Below, in pieces: positions 4,269 through 57,300 of a DNA stretch of 64,000 nt. The notes below the pieces were generated by a model. That model was not told the DNA's origin and searched no databases. It saw only the letters and a list, made by a program, of their open reading frames with translations. Location: positions 1 to 64,000 of the IMG/VR virus record IMGVR_UViG_3300028384_001275; one strand, given 5' to 3'. The stretch's first letter is position 1. Each line of letters opens with the position of its first letter. Origin of the DNA: a virus. Position numbers and translations under genes: made by a program.

Positions 4269-5204
4269 ATGTCCTTTTCTAGTCTCAAGAAAAAGTCTGG
4301 GTCCTTTGCTAATTTGACTCAGCAGATTGAGAAGATGTCTAAACCCAAGGGTGCAGGTCCCGATGAGCGCCTGTGGAAACCTGGTGTAGACAAGTCTGGT
4401 AATGGTTATGCGGTGATTCGATTCTTGCCTGAGCCCGATGGAGAGGACCTGCCCTGGGCACAAGTCTGGTCCCATGCCTTCAAAGGACCTCAAGGTCAAT
4501 GGTATATTGAAAACTCTCTCACGACTTTGAATCAAAAGGATCCTGTGGGTGAGCTCAACCGCACTCTTTGGAATAGTGGTATTGAATCCGACAAAGAGAT
4601 TGCTCGTAAGCAGAAGCGCAAGCTGTCTTACTACAGCAACATCTATGTTGTGAAGGATCAGCTGAATCCCGAGAATGAGGGTAAAGTTTTCCTCTATAAG
4701 TATGGTAAGAAGATCCACGATAAGATCGTGTCTTCTATGCAACCTCAGTTTGAGGATGAAGAGCCTATCAATCCTTTCGATCTGTGGAAAGGTGCTGACT
4801 TCCGTATCAAGATCCAGACCATTGGTGGTTATTGGAATTACGATAAGTCCGACTTTGCACAACCCGCCACTCTGGGTGGTTTTGAAGACGAGCGACTGGA
4901 AGAGATCTGGAAGTCCCAGTATTCTCTGAAGGAATTCACTGCTCCTTCCGCCTTCAAGTCTTATGAAGAGTTGGAAGCACGTCTTAACATGGTGCTGGGC
5001 ACCTCCTCTACGCCTTCAGTGCGTCGTAGTGATGAGAGTTTTGATGCTGAAGATGGTTTCAACTCACCTGACATTATGACACCTTCACCAGTGGTCCAAG
5101 CAGACCCCACTCCGAGTGGTTTTGGTGATAAGATTGAAGAGTTGAGCAAGTCGGACGATGGTCCTGACCTTGATTACTTTGCTTCTCTCGCTAACGACGA
5201 CTGA
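4269..5204 (+). CDS. gp32: Single-stranded DNA-binding protein gp32
   Basis: DERLWKP..DKSGNGYAVIRFLP, WYIENS.TT, KRKLSYYSNI, NYDKS.F, acidic tail DLDYFASLA. Confidence 0.95.
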   Translation: MSFSSLKKKSGSFANLTQQIEKMSKPKGAGPDERLWKPGVDKSGNGYAVIRFLPEPDGEDLPWAQVWSHAFKGPQGQWYIENSLTTLNQKDPVGELNRTLWNSGIESDKEIARKQKRKLSYYSNIYVVKDQLNPENEGKVFLYKYGKKIHDKIVSSMQPQFEDEEPINPFDLWKGADFRIKIQTIGGYWNYDKSDFAQPATLGGFEDERLEEIWKSQYSLKEFTAPSAFKSYEELEARLNMVLGTSSTPSVRRSDESFDAEDGFNSPDIMTPSPVVQADPTPSGFGDKIEELSKSDDGPDLDYFASLANDD

Positions 5205-5479
5205 TGAAACTGTTTGCCCTCCCTCTGCTGCTACTGACTGCGGCACCTGCCAATGCACTTACCTGGAAAGAATTCTGGGAGCCGTTTGATGGAGGGCATC
5301 ATCACCATCACTATTATCGAGACCATTACTATTACCCAAGACCAATGTGCGAAGTCTATGTAACTAAAAGACATTGGGTGCCAGGGTATTGGTTGGGTCC
5401 CAACAGATACGTTGAAGGATACTGGGAGAGTAGAGGACACACCAAGCTTCGTCCCTGCAAAAGGAGAAATCGAGTCTAA
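5204..5479 (+). CDS. Secreted/membrane-targeted His/Tyr-rich small protein
   Basis: Signal-peptide-like N-terminus (..AAPANA), His run, WVPGYW/YVEGYW repeats. Confidence 0.65.
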   Translation: MKLFALPLLLLTAAPANALTWKEFWEPFDGGHHHHHYYRDHYYYPRPMCEVYVTKRHWVPGYWLGPNRYVEGYWESRGHTKLRPCKRRNRV

Positions 5480-38596: not shown

Positions 38597-39431
38597 ATTT
38601 TATTCTATTGATCCTGGTGTAGCTGATCTTCACCCATGGTTTCCTGCTCGTAAGTTACATCGTAAATGGAGGACTGATGCCCTAAAGGCACAAAATGCTC
38701 CTGAAAAACGCTGCCCTTATAAGAAGGTAGAATCGATGTGGAAAAGAATGTCCGCTGAAATGATGGGTGAGCAAGCAATGCCTGAGATTTATACTCATGG
38801 TGTTACATGTCCTGCCCTCGCATCTGTAATGGATTCGGGATATATTCTTCCTGCTCCAGCTGATATTTTGATTAAAACTGATGGTAGTGGTGTCAACTTT
38901 GAGTGGTTATCTCCAATGTTGTTTCACAACAACAGTCAATATGTAAAGGCACACATTCCCCAACAAACTGAGGGTATGAGAGAGTTAGTCAATCAGCAAG
39001 AAGATGTGCTTGATTGGACTATCAAACTAGAGTTGCCATGGCGGGTCCAGTCTCATCCAGATATTTTATTTTTACAGCAACCTATTCCATATTGGGATGA
39101 AGATAGATTTACACCACCTACAGGTATTGTAGATCCATCATTTTCATATGATATTAATCTTCAACTATTCTGGCATAAAATAGAAGCAGGGGAATACTAT
39201 ATAAAAGCAGGCACACCTTTGTGTCAGTGGATTCCCTTACATCGTGACTTCTTCAAGATGAAAAACTGGGATATTTTCATTGAAACTGCAAATGATCATG
39301 ATATTGAAAACAATAAGATCATGGATTATCAACGAGGCAGAATCTTTATTGAAGGTGACGACTTAAAGGGTAGAATTAAAGTCCAGAGGCAAATACTTGG
39401 ACTAAATAAAAACATCAAGAGGTTTATGTAG
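38553..39431 (+). CDS. Conserved hypothetical protein (possible dUTPase-like beta fold)
   Basis: CP......GYI..APAD, K...PW, PP.GIVD, IKAGTPL.Q.IP; likely start ATG 38553 or 38562 rather than 38325. Confidence 0.6.
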   Translation: MGLMNIFKKRKPWVRFYSIDPGVADLHPWFPARKLHRKWRTDALKAQNAPEKRCPYKKVESMWKRMSAEMMGEQAMPEIYTHGVTCPALASVMDSGYILPAPADILIKTDGSGVNFEWLSPMLFHNNSQYVKAHIPQQTEGMRELVNQQEDVLDWTIKLELPWRVQSHPDILFLQQPIPYWDEDRFTPPTGIVDPSFSYDINLQLFWHKIEAGEYYIKAGTPLCQWIPLHRDFFKMKNWDIFIETANDHDIENNKIMDYQRGRIFIEGDDLKGRIKVQRQILGLNKNIKRFM

Positions 39432-49650: not shown

Positions 49651-50889
49651 ATGATCACCCTTCGTCCCCATCAGTCCCGTGCTCTCGCAGCAATGAGCGC
49701 CGCTGATCACGGTCAGGTTATTGTGCCAACTGGTGGCGGCAAGACTATCATCATGATTGAGCACGCTAAGCAACAACTAGAGCAAAAACCTTCCACCATT
49801 GTTGTTGTCGCTCCGCGCATTCTCCTCGCTAATCAACTCAGCACGGAGTTTATGCAAACAATCAGCGCAACATGGACGCATGTTTGCCATGCTCACAGTG
49901 GCGAAACGCATTACTTTAGCTCTACCAAGAGTGACAAAATTGCACTCTTCAATGATACTGCACGGGCAGCAGGTGAGTCCTGCATCATCTTCACTACCTA
50001 CCACAGTTTGCGTCGTGTTGTTGATAGTGGCATCGACGTTGATGCTATCTATTTTGATGAAGCACACAATGCTTGCACTAAACACTTCTTTGTAAGTGTT
50101 GCTGCTATGAGTATGATTGCAGACAAAAAGTATTTCTTCACTGCAACACCTCGCGTCAGCAATAAGCATGACCGTGGTATGAATAACCGTGAGATCTTCG
50201 GTCCCGTTATTGAGAATGTCCCTGCCCCTGAGTTAATTCAAGGCGGTCACATTCTTCCCCCTACGATTGTCCCTTTCGAGACAGATCACACCGTTGATAA
50301 GAAGAATCCACACCTTGTGCATAGCAACACTGTGCAGGATATTATTGACAATCTCGATGAGACTGACGCTGCAAAAGTGTTGGTAGCTGTGCCATCTTCC
50401 CGTGTGCTGGGTAACATTCTGGGTCACACAGATCTCTTGTCTGAGTTGTCTGATCGTGGATATGATGTCCTCCACGTTACATCTAAGTTTGGCGCATATG
50501 TCAACAAACAGAAAGTTTCCCGTGAAACATTCTTCGACACGTTGACAGCATGGGGCAAAGATTCTGATCGTAAATTTGTACTCTTCCACTACAGCATTCT
50601 GTCGGAAGGTATCAACGTCCCTGGTCTCACTCATTGCATCATGCTCCGTAATCTTAACGTGGTTGAGATGGCACAAACGATCGGACGTGTTATCCGTCTC
50701 GATCCTACTGACGCTGCTAAATTGCAGTCGGGTGAGTTACAGCCTCAGCAGTGGGGTTTCTATAACAAACCCACAGGATTTGTGACTGTCCCAGTTCATC
50801 GTAACTACGGCAAAGCAGTTATTAAGCGTTTGCAGCGTATCACGGATGAAATTTTTGTAAAGGGAGTGCCTGCCACTGCATTAGTCTAA
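49651..50889 (+). CDS. Superfamily 2 (DEAH/ResIII-like) helicase
   Basis: LRPHQ, PTGGGKT, FDEAH, FTATP, LSEGI.VP, QTIGRVIR. Confidence 0.9.
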   Translation: MITLRPHQSRALAAMSAADHGQVIVPTGGGKTIIMIEHAKQQLEQKPSTIVVVAPRILLANQLSTEFMQTISATWTHVCHAHSGETHYFSSTKSDKIALFNDTARAAGESCIIFTTYHSLRRVVDSGIDVDAIYFDEAHNACTKHFFVSVAAMSMIADKKYFFTATPRVSNKHDRGMNNREIFGPVIENVPAPELIQGGHILPPTIVPFETDHTVDKKNPHLVHSNTVQDIIDNLDETDAAKVLVAVPSSRVLGNILGHTDLLSELSDRGYDVLHVTSKFGAYVNKQKVSRETFFDTLTAWGKDSDRKFVLFHYSILSEGINVPGLTHCIMLRNLNVVEMAQTIGRVIRLDPTDAAKLQSGELQPQQWGFYNKPTGFVTVPVHRNYGKAVIKRLQRITDEIFVKGVPATALV

Positions 50890-50997: not shown

Positions 50998-51348
50998 ATG
51001 CGTAAGATCGAATCTCAAATGTGTGCCGCAGTCCAGAAAAACATTGACTGGCAATCTGGTAACACTTCTGTTCACTTTGATCCTGAAACTGGCGTCTCTG
51101 TTGTGCGTCTTCATGGCAACAAGATCGCTGAGGTTTCTGATAACGACATGACAATTTTTGATGGTGGTTGGCAGACTACTACCACTAAATCACGTCTGAA
51201 TGCACTTTGCCAAGAATTTTGCATTGCTGGTGAAGGTGTTTTCCAGAAAAACTATCAGTGGTTTGTGCGTAAGTTTGTTGCAGAATCTCCCATCACTGGT
51301 AAAGTTTATAACGTAGAAGATTTTGAGAATGGTTTCATCTTTGCCTGA
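50998..51348 (+). CDS. Conserved cyanophage early protein
   Basis: MRKIE.QM...W...NT.V...LHGN.IA...DGGWQ..TTKSRLNA. Confidence 0.7.
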   Translation: MRKIESQMCAAVQKNIDWQSGNTSVHFDPETGVSVVRLHGNKIAEVSDNDMTIFDGGWQTTTTKSRLNALCQEFCIAGEGVFQKNYQWFVRKFVAESPITGKVYNVEDFENGFIFA

Positions 51349-51350
51349 TT

Positions 51351-51539
51351 ATGTTTGCAACACTTTCTAAGAAAAGATCCAAATCTAATCTCATCACAAT
51401 TCACATGAAATTCCTTCTTCTCGTTATCATCGGTGTCCTGATCTACAATAGCAACGACACTCGATTTTTTATCTCAGATCAATTAAACAATGCTGCTGAG
51501 ATTGTCCGCCCCGATCCTAACATTCAAATTCGTTTCTGA
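51351..51539 (+). CDS. Small membrane protein
   Basis: Single hydrophobic helix; alternative ATG at 51405. Confidence 0.55.
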   Translation: MFATLSKKRSKSNLITIHMKFLLLVIIGVLIYNSNDTRFFISDQLNNAAEIVRPDPNIQIRF

Positions 51540-51574
51540 TCTGCTATAATTACTAACAAAGCTAATTAACAACA

Positions 51575-52207
51575 ATGTCTGACAATCTTTCACCTAATCT
51601 ATCTGATTCAATCACACAGGAAACTTATGCTCTCTTCCCAACTCCTGTCACTAGATATCATCTCCGTAACCACGATGATATAAAGAAACAAATCCTAGAT
51701 TGGATGAAAGAGCAACAAATCCTCCCACAAAATCCTAGACAAGCAATCTGCCATAACGTCGCACAAATTGGTCCTAATAATGCACCAACTAACGACATTC
51801 CTGACTTAACTAAATCCCTCCTCCAAGCAGTTGACTTTCATAATGCTAACGCATCTGCTTACCAATCTAACTTCCAAATCTCAGATTCTTACCTAGAGTT
51901 AGCTAATGAAGGTGCAATCTATGCTCCTCACGAACATTCAAACTGCATCTATTCCCTCACCTATTTCATTAACTTTCAAGACTCAACTCAACACTCTTTC
52001 CTTAAATTTAGAAAAAATGTTGCATCTAATCATTACCCAATCCTTCAATTAGATTCTGATACCCCAACAGCATATAATCTCACAGAAGCAACATTTAACA
52101 TGGAAGAAGGTGATGTTATCATCTATCCATCAAATCTTACTCATGGTTTTGACTCTAACCCACAACAAGATAGAATTACCCTAACCGCTAACATCATCAC
52201 TGCCTAA
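51575..52207 (+). CDS. 2OG-Fe(II) oxygenase (TIGR02466-like)
   Basis: LFPTP, PHEHSN, EGD.IIYPS.L.HG, RI....N; TGcTATAAT extended -10 at 51542. Confidence 0.8.
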   Translation: MSDNLSPNLSDSITQETYALFPTPVTRYHLRNHDDIKKQILDWMKEQQILPQNPRQAICHNVAQIGPNNAPTNDIPDLTKSLLQAVDFHNANASAYQSNFQISDSYLELANEGAIYAPHEHSNCIYSLTYFINFQDSTQHSFLKFRKNVASNHYPILQLDSDTPTAYNLTEATFNMEEGDVIIYPSNLTHGFDSNPQQDRITLTANIITA

Positions 52208-52217
52208 ACTAACAACA

Positions 52218-52400
52218 ATGCCCCAAAGACTTCAACTCCTACTTGACCTCTATGATCAACAAACTCTCCCCCCTGATCAACAAATAGAAATGGCACAGTT
52301 TCTAATAGATACGGGACTAAATGAAACCCTCTTACAATATCAACAACTATGCGACTATTTCATCATTGAAGGACTATGTTATGATGTCCAATATACATGA
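52218..52400 (+). CDS. Small hypothetical protein
   Basis: Compact ORF after the oxygenase. Confidence 0.55.
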   Translation: MPQRLQLLLDLYDQQTLPPDQQIEMAQFLIDTGLNETLLQYQQLCDYFIIEGLCYDVQYT

Positions 52401-52411
52401 CTAAACTAACA

Positions 52412-52785
52412 GTTTTCCACAACTATCCGCGTTTCTGTGGAAAACTAAAAAGCATTAAATAAATATAGGTTGGTGTTTTATATGCCCTCCTAAATAGGTC
52501 CACAAATAGTTACCTCGGACTGTAACACATCGACTCTGAGTTTGTCAACTATTCTCGGAGACTAACACAAACTGCCCACAGTGCTTGACAATGCCCACCA
52601 AATCTGCAACAATACATACATCAACTCAAGGAGGAGTTTCTAACATCAACTGACTTATGGGAAGGACTTACAAACGCAACGACCTGCACAATAGCAGACG
52701 ACCCAAATCTATCAGAGAAAAACGACAGTTTAGCTCTGGTAAAAAGAGATCTCTTGATGATGACTTTTCCACAGACTTTTCCACA
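52412..52785. repeat. Four TTTTCCACA (DnaA-box-type) 9-mers
   Basis: 52413-52421 (+) and 52436-52444 (-) as an inverted pair; 52765-52773 and 52777-52785 as a tandem pair. Confidence 0.75.
52585..52613 (+). promoter_or_regulatory. Sigma70-type promoter
   Basis: TTGACA, 17 nt (ending TGc), AACAAT. Confidence 0.5.
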
Positions 52786-52845
52786 GGAAAGTATCAACAA
52801 AAGAATCAACGTATTGATGACACTAACTGGCAGGACAATCAATGA
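52657..52845 (+). CDS. Small protein with a basic N-terminus
   Basis: MGRTYKRND...RRPKSIREKR. Confidence 0.55.
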   Translation: MGRTYKRNDLHNSRRPKSIREKRQFSSGKKRSLDDDFSTDFSTGKYQQKNQRIDDTNWQDNQ

Positions 52846-52961
52846 ATGACATCCTTAACGAAGATTGGATCGATTCTCTACTACAAGAGGACGAATCCTT
52901 AGACATTGATGACTCTATCCCTACAGAGTTTGATGAAGACCTCCGAGGTGATTGGACATGA
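52842..52961 (+). CDS. Very acidic 39-aa peptide (not in ORF track)
   Basis: ATGA overlaps both sides; 15 of 39 residues are D/E. Confidence 0.5.
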   Translation: MNDILNEDWIDSLLQEDESLDIDDSIPTEFDEDLRGDWT

Positions 52962-53122
52962 AAACTATTCAACTCCCCACACATCCCCCAGTAAATATCA
53001 AGATCTGGGACAAACATAACAAACACTTTTGGCAATACGATTACGACGGTTGTCCTAAGTATGGTCCCTTCAAATCCTCTCAGCAGGCTATCGCTGACGC
53101 AGAGGTATATTCAAGGGGTTGA
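52958..53122 (+). CDS. Small hypothetical protein (54 aa, not in ORF track)
   Basis: GAGG RBS; MKTIQL...FWQYDYDGCPKYGPFKS.Q.A..DA; followed by GGGACAG/CTGTCCC hairpin. Confidence 0.55.
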   Translation: MKTIQLPTHPPVNIKIWDKHNKHFWQYDYDGCPKYGPFKSSQQAIADAEVYSRG

Positions 53123-53285
53123 CAACACTCTGGGGACAGTTATTCTGTCCCTGTTTGTATCATCCGCGAAGCGGGTATATTAAAAACGCCTACTTCCCTA
53201 ACCTACAAAAGTATCTCAGCGACCTCGATATATTAATCAAATGAAATTGCGGGTCCCCCCTACACAAAAAAATTTTCCAGGGTAT

Positions 53286-53369
53286 AATTCCTCCTGGGAG
53301 GTCTCTACAAAGACGACCTTTCGGGAGGAATTCTTATATATTATAGAATGCGCCGTAGAGACCTCTAGG
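53286..53369. other. Interleaved inverted repeats (pseudoknot or switch-capable element)
   Basis: AATTCCTCCTG (53286) pairs with CGGGAGGAATT (53322); GAGGTCTCTAC (53298) pairs with GTAGAGACCTC (53355). Confidence 0.7.
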
Positions 53370-53413
53370 ATCGCCTGTAGCGCCCTTCTAAGTAAGTTTA
53401 CGAGGTAATCATC

Positions 53414-53917
53414 ATGACTAAGAGAGATCAAGAGTTTATGTCTTTACAGGAGGAGTATGCAGATCTGTTAGGGCATGTATGGAAGGGGAATAAGATGTAT
53501 GGATGTTATGAGATTATTCGGAAGTATTACAAGTGGAAGTATGATTATGAGATGATTGACTTCAATGGTAGGAGGAAGTTAACGTTATTTACTGAGGATG
53601 CGATTAAGGAGCAAGGAGGTAAGTGGGTATATCGCTCAGAGTGGGGAGATAGTGAGATTGATTTATCAGAGCTACAGCAAGATGATGTCCTAGTGTTTAG
53701 ATTGTATACCACTGCACTGGACGGATCATATAGCGTAAGCAGTAGGCATAATCTTCCAAATCATGGTGGTGTGTATCTAGGCAATGGATTTATGTTGCAT
53801 CATCCATATAAGCATCATTCAATGATTGTTGATTTACAAAATGAAACTAACTCAGTTTATCTAATGTCATGTGTAGGAGCGTTAAGGTCTGGTGAAAACC
53901 TGGACAATGCTACATAA
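53414..53917 (+). CDS. NlpC/P60-family protein (lambda gpK-like)
   Basis: GCY.IIR.YY, D.L.F, NHGGVYLG.G..LHH Cys/His/His set; GAGG RBS. Confidence 0.7.
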   Translation: MTKRDQEFMSLQEEYADLLGHVWKGNKMYGCYEIIRKYYKWKYDYEMIDFNGRRKLTLFTEDAIKEQGGKWVYRSEWGDSEIDLSELQQDDVLVFRLYTTALDGSYSVSSRHNLPNHGGVYLGNGFMLHHPYKHHSMIVDLQNETNSVYLMSCVGALRSGENLDNAT

Positions 53918-53939
53918 AAGTAATAAGGCGTATAGGGTT

Positions 53940-54107
53940 ATGAGTAAAAGGTATGTACTAGAAGTGCAAGAGGATGAGTATGGTGATGTATTTGTGACAC
54001 TACCTGATGAGTTACTTGAGGAAGCTGGTTGGGATGTTGGTGATGTGTTAGAGTATGAGGAAGATATTGATGGTAGTGTAATACTACATAAAATTATTGA
54101 AGAGTAA
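53940..54107 (+). CDS. AbrB/MazE/SpoVT-like DNA-binding protein
   Basis: V.LP.ELL...GW..GD.L.......GS..L.K. Confidence 0.65.
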   Translation: MSKRYVLEVQEDEYGDVFVTLPDELLEEAGWDVGDVLEYEEDIDGSVILHKIIEE

Positions 54108-54137
54108 AAAAATCGCGAAAAACCGCGTTTTAAGATT

Positions 54138-54392
54138 ATGAGTGAAAAAAATCCGATCCTGCAATTTGAAAGCGACGAAGAATATTTGAAGTGGGCGCTA
54201 GAGACGTTATCTAAGGCGGTGGAAAATTTATCTCGACGGCAAGCAATTATTGAGCAAGCGATTCAGAAGATGCCACCACCTGGTCCTGATATGATTCAAT
54301 ATAAGATTCCAGGTGATGATGACTATAGTAATATCAAAGTCATTTTAGATAATGTGTTTAAGCGTCTAAATAAATTGGAAACAGAATCTTAA
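54138..54392 (+). CDS. Hypothetical protein
   Basis: Coiled segment then YK.PG...Y......LD..F.RLN.LE. Confidence 0.6.
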   Translation: MSEKNPILQFESDEEYLKWALETLSKAVENLSRRQAIIEQAIQKMPPPGPDMIQYKIPGDDDYSNIKVILDNVFKRLNKLETES

Positions 54393-54398
54393 TACATA

Positions 54399-57300
54399 AT
54401 GGTTGCTTTTTTGCAGGAGACAGGTAGAAGTTTTCCGAATCCGATCAGCTCGGAGCAATACACTCGTCCATTTAAGCGACCATCATCAAGTAAGTATGAG
54501 TCTCATGATAAGTATCCCAATATTGGGACAGGGACTGATTACTATATTCAATTTGAGAAAGGTGGTCCTGGGTCTAAACCCCTAGGATCTGATACTGTAC
54601 ATTATTTGGGTGATACTCCTAAGATTGATGTGCGGTTTGATTCTAGTGGTAATATTGTAGTTGCGGGTGGCACATGTGATTTAGGACTCACACTACAATG
54701 GGATGATAATACAGGGACTGCTGGCACAACAGGTGCAGACGTATCAGCATCAATTAATGGATCAACAATTAGTGTATCACATGGTAGTGGTGAAAAAGGA
54801 AGTGATAGATCTAATTTAGTTTCTAACGTCGGACCTGGCACATACTCAACCAGTATTAGTAGTAATTACGGTAGGAGTATACGGGACGATCAGATTTGTT
54901 TTTATGATGATGATGGTAATGATTGTAATGCCACATTATCAATACGGGTGCAGAATCAAGAGCCAACACCAAATGCTCTTAGTTATGCAACCCATCCTAA
55001 TTTTGAGCGGCAAGCAATTTATCGTTTCTTCCGTGGTGCAAAGAATGATCACAAGTATAGTGATCTTGCTGGCATGTCTCGCGAAGACTTTGGTTGTGAG
55101 AATGAAGATTGGAGTGGAGTTGCGCGAGGGTATAACAAAGAGCCGCGTGATGGCAGACCTTCATTCTACCTGATGAATAAAGAGGTAACAGGCAGTAGTC
55201 CAATCAAACTATATTATTCATATTGGCCAGATAACACAGTATTACACTTTGGTAGCGGAAACCCATCGGGCATTACAGTTGGATGTGGTAGAAACAAATA
55301 CAAATATGTAAAGACCATTGGATATGGTTTTGCAACAGAATCTGCTGCGGGTGATTTCAAGGGATCTGCAGAGAATGCAGTGCCTTTATATCATTATCGC
55401 AAAGGTGTATATCAAAATGGACAGCAGGGAAAAGATATCGATGATTTATATACGATCGATCCCGCAAGTGAAGTTAACCTGAGTGGCGGTCCTATTGCTC
55501 CTAAGGATGCCCTGAGCGGAGAATATGTGTATCAGGGTATCTTGTGTTATATTTTTGCGTCAGATGTTGTAGATGCACCTACGATCGAATATGTTGAGGG
55601 CACTGCAATCGGACCCACAGGTCAATGTGTAGATAAAACTGACTGGTATGACTATGGAATTGAAGGTAGCGGATATGGCGATGATGAATATCGCAGATTT
55701 GATCCAGCCTCATATGCAAACTATGTGGCTGAGAGTGAGAATAGTAAAGGATATGCACCAACCACTCCTGGCACTGCGCTCTGGAATAGTGATAATGTAA
55801 CTATTCAAAATGAAGATGCACACTTCGAGTGGTTTTACGGATTGAATGGCGCAGTCAAAGCAGCACTTCCTCGTTATCTTGGATTTGAGGATGCATACGA
55901 TTCTCAGTTTATGTTTTATCTGTATGACACATCATACCCATGGAATGGTCCGATCTATGGAATCCAATATACATTGAATGATGTGCCATGTTGTCCCAAT
56001 ACAACTATTCCTGGACAAGGAGAAGATGATGATGAGCCTGGATGTGTTCCTCATGAATCATACCATTCACATTTTTATGAAATCAAACGAGACGCTTGGG
56101 AAACAACCAAGACACGTCTAAAGATCAATGATGGTAAAGAAGATGTCAATGCAAACTTTACTGAAATTGATACACTAAGTCCAAGAATTTTATTTCGTTA
56201 TACAAGTAGAGATGGTGATTGGAATCGTGGTGATACTATTAATGGATGGTTTGTTAACGCAGTTTTCTATTATGGAGATGAGTTGAAAGTTGGTGTTATG
56301 CACCTTAGTGGCAATGGTAATGATTTCACTTATAACTCGGCATATACATCTACAGACGGTGGTGCTATTCGCGTATTGGCAGGATATGGTATTCCTAACA
56401 AAGCTGCATTTGCTGGCGTCTATGAATTTCCAAAGAAGATTTCATATTGGAAGGTTGAGATTTCACCCAATGCATTGATTCCGAATCGCACACTTGATGA
56501 AGCGGTACTAAAAGCATATGTTAATAAGAAGGGTGAAGTCAGTGAAATTGAAATTATCAATTCTGGTAGAGGATATGAAAACCCTCTGATTAAAGTTATC
56601 AACCCAGGTCTACTGGAAGATTTTAATGCTAACGATACTGCAAAAATTATCAAAGCAAAAGTTGGCATGAATGCCGACTTTGAAAAAGCTATTGAAAATC
56701 CAAATGTCACTTTTTCATCAAGAGATATTGGAAAAGATAGTCATGAGGTATTTGGTATCAAGACAGGACAGTTTAGACCAAAGAATAAAAACAAAAGTCC
56801 TTATGTTTCTAAGGAAGCAGTCATTGAAGTAACTAAACTTACAGATGAGGGTGGTATTGATAGTGTCCGCATTATTGATGGTGGATCAGGATATAGTAGT
56901 GATGAAATTCCTGATGTGTTGGTAGCAGATCCTGAGTATATCAAATATGATTCACCTCCCCAACCAGGCAAACAAAAAAATAGATTTAATAAGTCTCTAG
57001 AATCTATGGGTGCTCATATGGCAGCATCATGGTCTGAAGTGCAAAACTTGAATTCACTTGCAACATCAAACAAATCGGGTAAGACTAACAAAAAAGAAAG
57101 TGGTCTATTAGATACCAGCACTGAATATACTCAGTCTTCTGTAAACTTTATCAGAGATGGTATTAGTGTAGAGATACCAGATTCTTACATTAGAGTGCCT
57201 CAAGAAGAGATTAGTGAAGACGAATTGCACATGTGCTTTGACTTGCCTGCAACATGTATTAAAGTTGATGCAAGAACAAACCTTAGTAAGGCATTACCCA

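Follow-up and report, generated by a model that had tools for sequence, protein, structure and literature searches.

Locus and gene setting

The stretch of DNA analysed here (the window) comprises positions 1 to 64,000 of the IMG/VR virus record IMGVR_UViG_3300028384_001275. It lies on a contig of 104,523 bp that derives from a T4-like cyanophage of the Kyanoviridae and for which a completeness of 58% was estimated. The closest isolates are the Synechococcus phages S-WAM1 and S-SZBM1 with a DNA identity of approximately 70-72% across parts of the region. At 52.4-52.85 kb, sequence comparison points to a single-copy control module that is conserved family-wide and consists of DnaA-type boxes, an AT-rich tract and two back-to-back promoters (Table 1). 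This module is the best, albeit unproven, candidate for the unmapped replication start of the virus.

In the region around the module all genes lie on the plus strand, as claimed in a preliminary description of the window. The same description had placed the putative origin in one of the largest non-coding gaps, which is only partly the case. Three small ATGA-coupled open reading frames (ORFs) occupy 52657-53122, and real gaps are found on both sides of them in the form of two intergenic regions (IG1 and IG2). The gene psbA was not found on the contig. An Rfam search of 48-58 kb with E values up to 1 resulted in two chance-level matches only, none of them inside the module, and a comparison of the small proteins beside the module with known families revealed no recognisable initiator gene.

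Table 1. Coordinates of the features at the locus (positions in the window).
Feature	Position	Strand	Remark
Helicase gene	49651-50889	+	
Kyano_Gp96 gene	50998-51348	+	
phrog_2128 gene	51351-51539	+	Family match
2OG-Fe(II) oxygenase-like gene	51575-52207	+	Family match
phrog_14990 gene	52218-52400	+	Family match
G-depleted gene block	51351-52400	+	
IG1	52401-52656		First true intergenic region
Site A, inverted TTTTCCACA pair	52413-52421, 52436-52444	+, -	Span 52413-52444; 14-nt spacer; in IG1
AT-rich tract, conserved	52445-52483		Abuts site A; candidate DNA unwinding element
PL, sigma70-type promoter-like site	52519-52548	-	TTGACA-18-TACAGT with TG; predicted start ~52512; from consensus and conservation
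PR, sigma70-type promoter for the small-ORF operon	52585-52613	+	TTGACA-17-AACAAT
Small basic protein gene (MGRTYKRNDLHN...)	52657-52845	+	phrog_3226, 4e-6; holds site B
Site B, tandem TTTTCCACA boxes	52765-52773, 52777-52785	+	Inside basic-protein gene; encode DFSTDFST
Acidic 39-aa peptide ORF	52842-52961	+	ATGA-coupled; read from the sequence
phrog_24597 protein ORF	52958-53122	+	ATGA-coupled; PHROG match 1.5e-32
IG2	53123-53413	+	Second intergenic region; sign change of the GC skew inside
IG2 promoter-like sites	53119-53146, 53261-53288		
IG2 hairpin	53131-53153		
IG2 conserved CCTAACCTACAA element	53197-53208		
IG2 degenerate box TTTTCCAGG	53273-53281		
NlpC/P60-like gene	53414-53917	+	Family match
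MazE/AbrB-like gene	53940-54107	+	Family match
phrog_699 gene	54138-54392	+	Family match
C-depleted gene block	53414-54392	+	
Gene of a 1404-aa protein		+	Right of phrog_699 gene; baseplate or structural protein by annotation of relatives

DnaA-type boxes and their conservation

The four copies of the 9-mer TTTTCCACA reported in the preliminary description were all recovered (sites A and B). As had also been stated, the 9-mer fits TTWTNCACA and is a cyanobacterial DnaA box. It has been published as 'species-specific' for cyanobacteria (PMC4674748), and all four copies match the consensus perfectly. The remark that none was noticed elsewhere proved nearly right: the cluster lies where it was described, a fifth copy is found in the window at 38737(-), and the whole contig contains six. 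The five copies in the window compare to 1.31 expected, and none of 100 shuffles (0/100) reached this number. In addition, a copy with one mismatch, TTTTCCACC, was observed at 54218(-).

Site A begins 12 nt past the stop codon of the phrog_14990 gene, and site B is a perfect 12-bp tandem duplication (two times GACTTTTCCACA). Since the four boxes thus result from two events, the inverted pair in IG1 and the duplication in the small ORF, the clustering within this genome is modest, with two of four independent events inside 373 bp (p ~0.04, own estimate). The strong evidence for the boxes therefore comes from their conservation in relatives and not from the clustering in this genome.

For this comparison, 26 related IMG/VR loci were gathered with the phrog_24597 protein as anchor. 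In 25 of them the exact 9-mer was found at the syntenic place and at the same two sites, site A being located directly after the upstream gene and site B within the basic-protein gene. Elsewhere in the approximately 6 kb of each locus it is almost absent. Of the two boxes of site A, the first is unchanged in all aligned relatives that cover its column, and the second varies, being inverted, direct, TTATCCACA or TATTCCACA. The box variants TTATCCACA and TTTTTCACA of the relatives remain inside TTWTNCACA. A protein search with the phrog_699 gene led to six IMG/VR loci only.

Among the isolates, all eight Synechococcus phages checked carry the 9-mer at the locus (S-WAM1, S-SZBM1, Syn9, S-RIM8, S-8S29, S-SSM5, S-SM1 and S-MS29), compared to one of eight Prochlorococcus phages, namely P-SSM7, although these counts are phylogenetically non-independent. 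A strict host rule for the boxes had to be rejected due to P-SSM7. The module of Syn9 comprises TTTTTCACA at 52553, TTTTCCACA at 52565 and an inverted copy at 52589; in S-WAM1, three direct copies are found. All copies of the 9-mer are placed at this locus in the complete genome G001 (three of three) and in S-SSM5 (two of two), while genomes lacking the module contain one to six scattered copies. Altogether, the box locus is kept across many genera of T4-like cyanophages.

Site B allows a comparison of the box with codon usage. In 24 unique orthologous genes, the tripeptide FST is encoded by TTT-TCC-ACA in 18 of 18 cases, with a background usage in the same genes of 55% for TTT, 20% for TCC and 31% for ACA. 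This codon choice indicates that site B is conserved at the nucleotide level, although it lies inside a gene. Moreover, the 9-mer stays exact while copy number and orientation vary, and it is therefore a protein-binding DNA site and not an RNA hairpin. Selection thus acts on double-stranded DNA, with the site being functional in both orientations. The inverted boxes were not accepted as a hairpin, small RNA or terminator after a consensus fold of IG1 from 16 phages showed 0 pairs; in S-WAM1 no hairpin is possible, because its copies are direct repeats only.

Among viral contigs with an inverted box pair, spacers of 14 nt (36/82) and 15 nt (16/82) form the dominant class. A scan of IMG/VR for direct pairs was little informative, as it led mostly to unrelated contigs and only 6 of 80 loci had any match to proteins of the locus.

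Further boxes were observed outside the main cluster. Five isolates share an extra minus-strand box that is located 1.5-2 kb rightward of it (Syn9 54597, S-RIM8 43342, S-MS29 11617, S-SM1 L162 5464 and S-WAM1 50269). In the first four it lies at most approximately 300 nt from the start of the large baseplate gene, and in S-WAM1 it is close to the beginning of a 2OG-Fe(II) oxygenase gene. In S-RIM8 (L160 3540-3575) and S-8S29 (L157 3650-3685), another box is placed between TATAAT and ATG, an operator-like position, upstream of the small gene located before the inverted pair.

Candidate binding protein

Host DnaA is the most likely, still putative, binder of the boxes. Since the 9-mer corresponds to the cyanobacterial consensus, is kept at one locus and is rare elsewhere, the pattern is in keeping with a defined site where the phage docks host DnaA or sequesters it. 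A phage-encoded DnaA domain IV was not found in the phages searched. Inverted pairs with a spacer of 14-15 nt also occur upstream of dnaA-dnaN in Enterococcus, as part of a cluster of eight boxes, and the same arrangement was found in Liquorilactobacillus close to yidC, where 600 bp contain eight boxes, and in Hominifimenecus close to a gene of the parA type.

Three complete chromosomes of marine Synechococcus showed no overall enrichment of the perfect 9-mer. The box clusters expected at dnaN or dnaA were not found in these chromosomes, where only one-mismatch boxes occur upstream of dnaN. Because of the lack of perfect boxes at dnaN, the binder is less certain for marine Synechococcus hosts than the literature consensus would suggest. 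Perfect TTTTCCACA(G) pairs were observed at a few intergenic loci distant from dnaA and dnaN (L474 1944/1965, L475 2005/2027, L476 2002/2046 and L477 1947/1991). In some of the host pairs the boxes are 21-22 nt apart, which is the same phasing as in the direct pairs of the phages; other host pairs are inverted, with a 35-nt spacer common to two species. The host pairs may represent DnaA-box clusters located away from oriC, or else the sites of a different factor.

The latter would also concern the phages, if the 9-mer were bound by a phage protein or another host factor and its identity with the DnaA box were a coincidence or mimicry. The missing perfect boxes upstream of dnaN, the perfect pairs at unrelated intergenic loci and the extended motif TTTTCCACAG, which is common to phage and host sites, agree with such a binder. 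However, the variants TTATCCACA and TTTTTCACA stay inside the DnaA consensus, the same arrangement exists in a genuine dnaA-dnaN origin region, and the phages encode no DnaA domain IV, nor is any candidate binder known, which makes this explanation quite improbable.

A very improbable role of the boxes is that of a DnaA sink or modulator similar to datA or DARS, a possibility raised in the preliminary description. Replicating phage genomes would titrate or reset host DnaA and thereby block or redirect host initiation, and the two to four perfect high-affinity boxes per genome would indeed multiply with phage replication. This number is very low, however, and neither the fixed placement by the AT tract and the promoters nor the 14-15-nt spacing would be needed. 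Furthermore, seven of the eight Prochlorococcus phage isolates manage without boxes.

AT-rich tract, promoters and IG2

In the alignment of relatives, the AT-rich tract beyond site A has the consensus AATTAAATg..tAAaTAAAtATAc, and its 30-bp duplex stability lies within the least stable 0.2% of the contig windows. A DnaA-box cluster adjoining a candidate AT-rich unwinding element, as in oriC-type origins, is therefore present at the locus.

Two conserved blocks between the tract and PR correspond to PL when read on the minus strand. The back-to-back site was also found in S-WAM1, S-SZBM1, L004, L025, L016, IMG151/154 and P-TIM40, the last of which has PL and PR and lacks the boxes. PL is predicted to fire to the left, through the AT tract (approximately +30 to +70) and the boxes and then antisense to the upstream genes. 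For PR, the best plus-strand site scored 10-12 of 12 in all 20 relatives scanned, and in 19 of them its first hexamer is TTGACA or TTGACT, followed by a spacer of 17 or 18 nt.

In a metatranscriptome run, a contig depth of 138-165 was observed over 51840-52775, which comprises the 3' part of the oxygenase gene, the phrog_14990 gene and IG1, compared to a depth of 49 immediately before this stretch and of 27 in the baseplate gene; in DNA runs the stretch was mostly flat. This is a weak hint at an extra transcript covering the module, on either strand.

The conserved early promoter leads to the main rival of a replication start, a purely regulatory role of DnaA. Bound to sites A and B, DnaA would repress or activate the early operon or PL and thereby couple early phage expression to the replication or energy state of the host, without the region being an origin. 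The boxes do flank a strongly conserved promoter, the additional box of S-RIM8 and S-8S29 has the position of an operator, and the box pairs of marine Synechococcus, likewise phased at 21-22 nt, lie in intergenic regions outside the origin. With site A approximately 150-190 bp upstream of PR and site B approximately 150 bp downstream, the distances are nevertheless large for direct control. In addition, promoter control gives no role to the AT tract beside the boxes and downstream of PL, and only a single such locus exists per genome. Overall, this explanation is regarded as somewhat unlikely.

IG2 holds a second set of elements, which is kept in nearly all Kyanoviridae compared, including phages without boxes. 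Their order is a promoter-like TTGACA, a hairpin, TATA(A/T)AAA, CCCTAACCTACAAAGGT, TATATTA and a AAAAAATTTCCCAG-like block resembling a degenerate box. The element was also located in L001 (~5040-5250), Syn9 (53431-53613) and L066 (8700-8860), and it has neither an Rfam match nor an ORF. In P-SSM7, the homologous place holds two perfect boxes.

GC skew of the flanking genes

The preliminary description had reported a sharp local change from C-rich to G-rich composition and had taken it as the switch of a bidirectional origin. The local change was clearly reproduced, as 300-bp windows reach -0.39 to -0.45 at 51.4-52.45 kb and +0.43 to +0.45 at 53.35-54.25 kb, with the sign change at approximately 53.2-53.35 kb. 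The flanks comprise the lowest (-0.40, z ~-5) and the highest (+0.37) 1-kb windows of the contig. The interpretation as an origin switch did not hold, since the cumulative skew climbs throughout apart from a 2-kb dip. No V was found in the contig or in the complete genomes of S-WAM1 and Syn9, and the genome-wide switch of strand composition typical of oriC is absent. The skew extends over approximately 1 kb per side, with the switch displaced rightward from the intergenic box pair by approximately 0.8 kb, and is not of the replichore type. Although the polarity is that of an origin (C-rich left, G-rich right on the plus strand), a classical bidirectional origin, at which leading/lagging asymmetry makes the switch, is extremely improbable and largely refuted.

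The skew is seen gene by gene at third codon positions (GC3 skew). In the left arm, the phrog_2128, oxygenase-like and phrog_14990 genes show values of -0.62, -0.75 and -0.53, the three lowest of the 86 genes of the contig, and G occupies only 5 of 62, 8 of 210 and 4 of 60 third positions. In the right arm, the NlpC/P60-like, MazE/AbrB-like and phrog_699 genes have the three highest values (+0.59, +1.0 and +0.59), with C at 13 of 167, 0 of 55 and 6 of 84 third positions. Codon positions 1 and 2 are shifted, too.

The conservation of the flip in relatives, which the preliminary description had named as a check, holds in part. Close relatives show the same sign, with a mean of -0.27 over the kb left of the boxes. 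In S-WAM1, the lowest 1-kb window of the genome (-0.31) abuts the boxes on the left, and the same was found for Syn9, where this window is only marginally the lowest (-0.15). A simple link between boxes and skew was rejected, as it failed in four phages that carry boxes without skew.

The phrog_14990 gene lies left of the boxes in this phage only, and its ratio of G to C at third positions is 4:13. In 24 orthologues, 23 of which lie right of the boxes and one in a box-less locus, the pooled ratio is 237:241, with 6-17 third-position G each. Because the moved gene has lost third-position G, the bias appears to depend on position. In relatives the gene was observed after the phrog_24597 gene, and here a junction T(G)(C/A)CTAAACTAACA occurs on both sides of it (52201-52220 and 52398-52411). 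Apparently the gene was moved recently, as a cassette, inside the locus at the CTAAACTAACA junction. Contigs of near-identical phages from metagenomes and a metatranscriptome join position 51021 to 53181, 52721 to 53164 and 52727 to 53175, which suggests that in population variants parts of the module are missing or replaced.

As far as the skew alone is concerned, it could be unrelated to replication and R-loops and originate from codon- or mRNA-level selection in gene modules, or from recombination-linked 'skew islands' of the kind found beside swappable cassettes. From module to module, GC3 skew does range from -0.46 to +0.3 in G000, S-WAM1 and Syn9, the local skew is lineage-specific and missing in some box-carrying phages, and the region is a cassette hot spot, as seen from the moved gene and the joined metagenome contigs. 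Such an origin is still considered unlikely, given that the six extreme genes lie as two adjacent groups with opposite signs precisely on either side of the module and that the third-position G of the moved gene changed with its position.

A comparable phenomenon are the genetic repeats of intense nucleotide skews (GRINS). They share with the present locus an intense skew on the kb scale inside intact coding sequence and at a place of cassette exchange. In contrast to GRINS, which are repeats, third-position G is avoided here on one side and third-position C on the other, mirrored about a control module. Direct or inverted repeats above 32 nt were not found in 51300-54450, and none links the two arms. 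Since repeats are missing, the skew is not of the GRINS type, which also speaks against the cassette explanation. In our view, the skew reflects strand asymmetry that arises regionally, by a process running outward from the module, with a cause that we infer below.

Comparison with known origins

The statement of the preliminary description that T4 uses R-loop origins is correct (PMC3016281). For T4, the R-loop origins oriF (uvsY) and oriG (gene 34) as well as oriE have been described (Kreuzer and Brister 2010, PMC3016281). Minimal oriF and oriG consist of a promoter and a downstream A+T-rich unwinding element, and the transcript forms a priming R-loop (PMC3016281). The present module resembles them as a unit of approximately 100-250 bp with a predicted promoter followed by a candidate A+T-rich unwinding element. 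It also adjoins late (baseplate) genes in a T4-like genome, and relatives encode gp59, gp41 and RNase H. Contrary to the MotA-dependent middle promoters of the T4 origins, the promoter predicted for the module is of the sigma70 type. In this respect it resembles oriE with its promoter of the early sigma70 type (PMC3016281), and because of this type no phage factor would be needed. A MotA_activ domain was not found in G000, Syn9, S-WAM1, S-RIM8 and P-SSM7. Since T4-like cyanophages lack MotA, the middle-promoter origins of T4 cannot apply to them directly. Finally, T4 has several origins and no DnaA boxes, whereas one module per genome is found here, with boxes directly beyond the AT tract.

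With oriC, including cyanobacterial oriC with TTTTCCACA (PMC4674748), the module shares perfect consensus boxes clustered by an AT-rich tract. It differs in the number of boxes (2-4), in the missing dnaA or dnaN neighbour and genome-wide skew switch, and in its location in a T4-like lytic phage equipped with a replisome of its own. A DnaA-trio pattern was not recognised, as judged by eye only.

Host DnaA boxes serve as accessories in the origins of lambda, P1 (oriR), F, RK2 and pSC101. The module is similar to these as the candidate origin of a mobile element with host DnaA boxes beside an AT-rich stretch, and some of its sites lie within a small gene, as the lambda origin lies inside gene O. 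However, those origins possess iterons and a cognate initiator protein, and at the present locus neither a repeat family besides the boxes nor a recognisable initiator gene was found.

Interpretation as a replication start

Based on these comparisons, it is tentatively suggested that the module is an early, origin-dependent replication start of the T4 type with docking of host DnaA. Of the explanations considered it is the likeliest, quite possible though we would not call it probable, and the reading is mechanistically coherent and plausible. Host RNA polymerase would fire to the left from PL, and the transcript would enter the AT tract approximately 30-70 nt downstream, where an R-loop or open complex could form. 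Host DnaA on the adjoining boxes may help to open or hold the tract or to time its opening, and the phage replisome (gp59/gp41, gp43) would then take over. In each flank C is depleted on the strand that reads outward, visible as a G-poor plus strand on the left and a C-poor plus strand on the right; this could be the regional footprint of outward transcription, R-loops or single-strandedness and would not be a replichore skew. In line with a T4-type start, gp59 is encoded by Syn9 and RNase H by S-WAM1, according to their annotation. The motifs with their conservation, scarcity elsewhere and geometry, and the local skew with its dependence on position, are shown by the sequences. DnaA as the binder, the activity of PL, the formation of R-loops, the origin function and the cause of the skew are the parts that we infer.

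Several observations weigh against a DnaA-assisted T4-type start. T4 itself needs no DnaA, and in the three marine Synechococcus chromosomes the perfect box pairs are placed at scattered intergenic loci and not at dnaN. DnaA binding, the PL transcript and initiation at the module are predictions. The AT tract is not the stability minimum of the contig. Promoter-like matches occur in the region at chance frequency (13 found, 11.2 expected), so that it is its conservation that argues for PL, and PL is weak or absent in the Syn9 group. Since phages without boxes retain the AT tract and the promoters, the boxes look like an add-on to a conserved core, and boxes, skew and core are separable. This is also seen in S-RIM8, S-MS29, S-SSM5 and P-SSM7, which have boxes without local skew. 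The AT skew of the right arm, in turn, lacks the T enrichment expected from cytosine deamination.

A more far-reaching version would unite all features in one hybrid origin, at which host DnaA docks by a T4-type promoter with its unwinding element, R-loops of divergent, outward and C-poor transcripts prime both leading strands, and a mirrored C depletion of the displaced strands results on the kb scale in some lineages. In this full form the interpretation is distinctly unlikely.

Implications

T4-like cyanophages are among the most abundant viruses of the ocean. In the literature searched, no description of DnaA boxes in cyanophages or of a mirrored skew was found. The sole published statement found is the prediction of a single theta origin for Syn9, as reported in PMC2984593. 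In this model phage, the module offers a precise and testable origin candidate at approximately 52.55-52.8 kb.

The module points to a T4-type phage that relies on the initiator of its host or responds to it. If true, this dependence would link infection to the cell cycle of the host and to light. The presence of the boxes in eight of eight Synechococcus phage isolates, compared to one of eight for Prochlorococcus, is a hint that the trait is linked to the host. At third codon positions, the mirrored skew with its dependence on position represents an unexplained strand-asymmetric process reaching approximately 1 kb to each side. If the hybrid-origin interpretation were true, the footprint of C depletion could serve to locate origins in uncultured T4-like phages by sequence alone.

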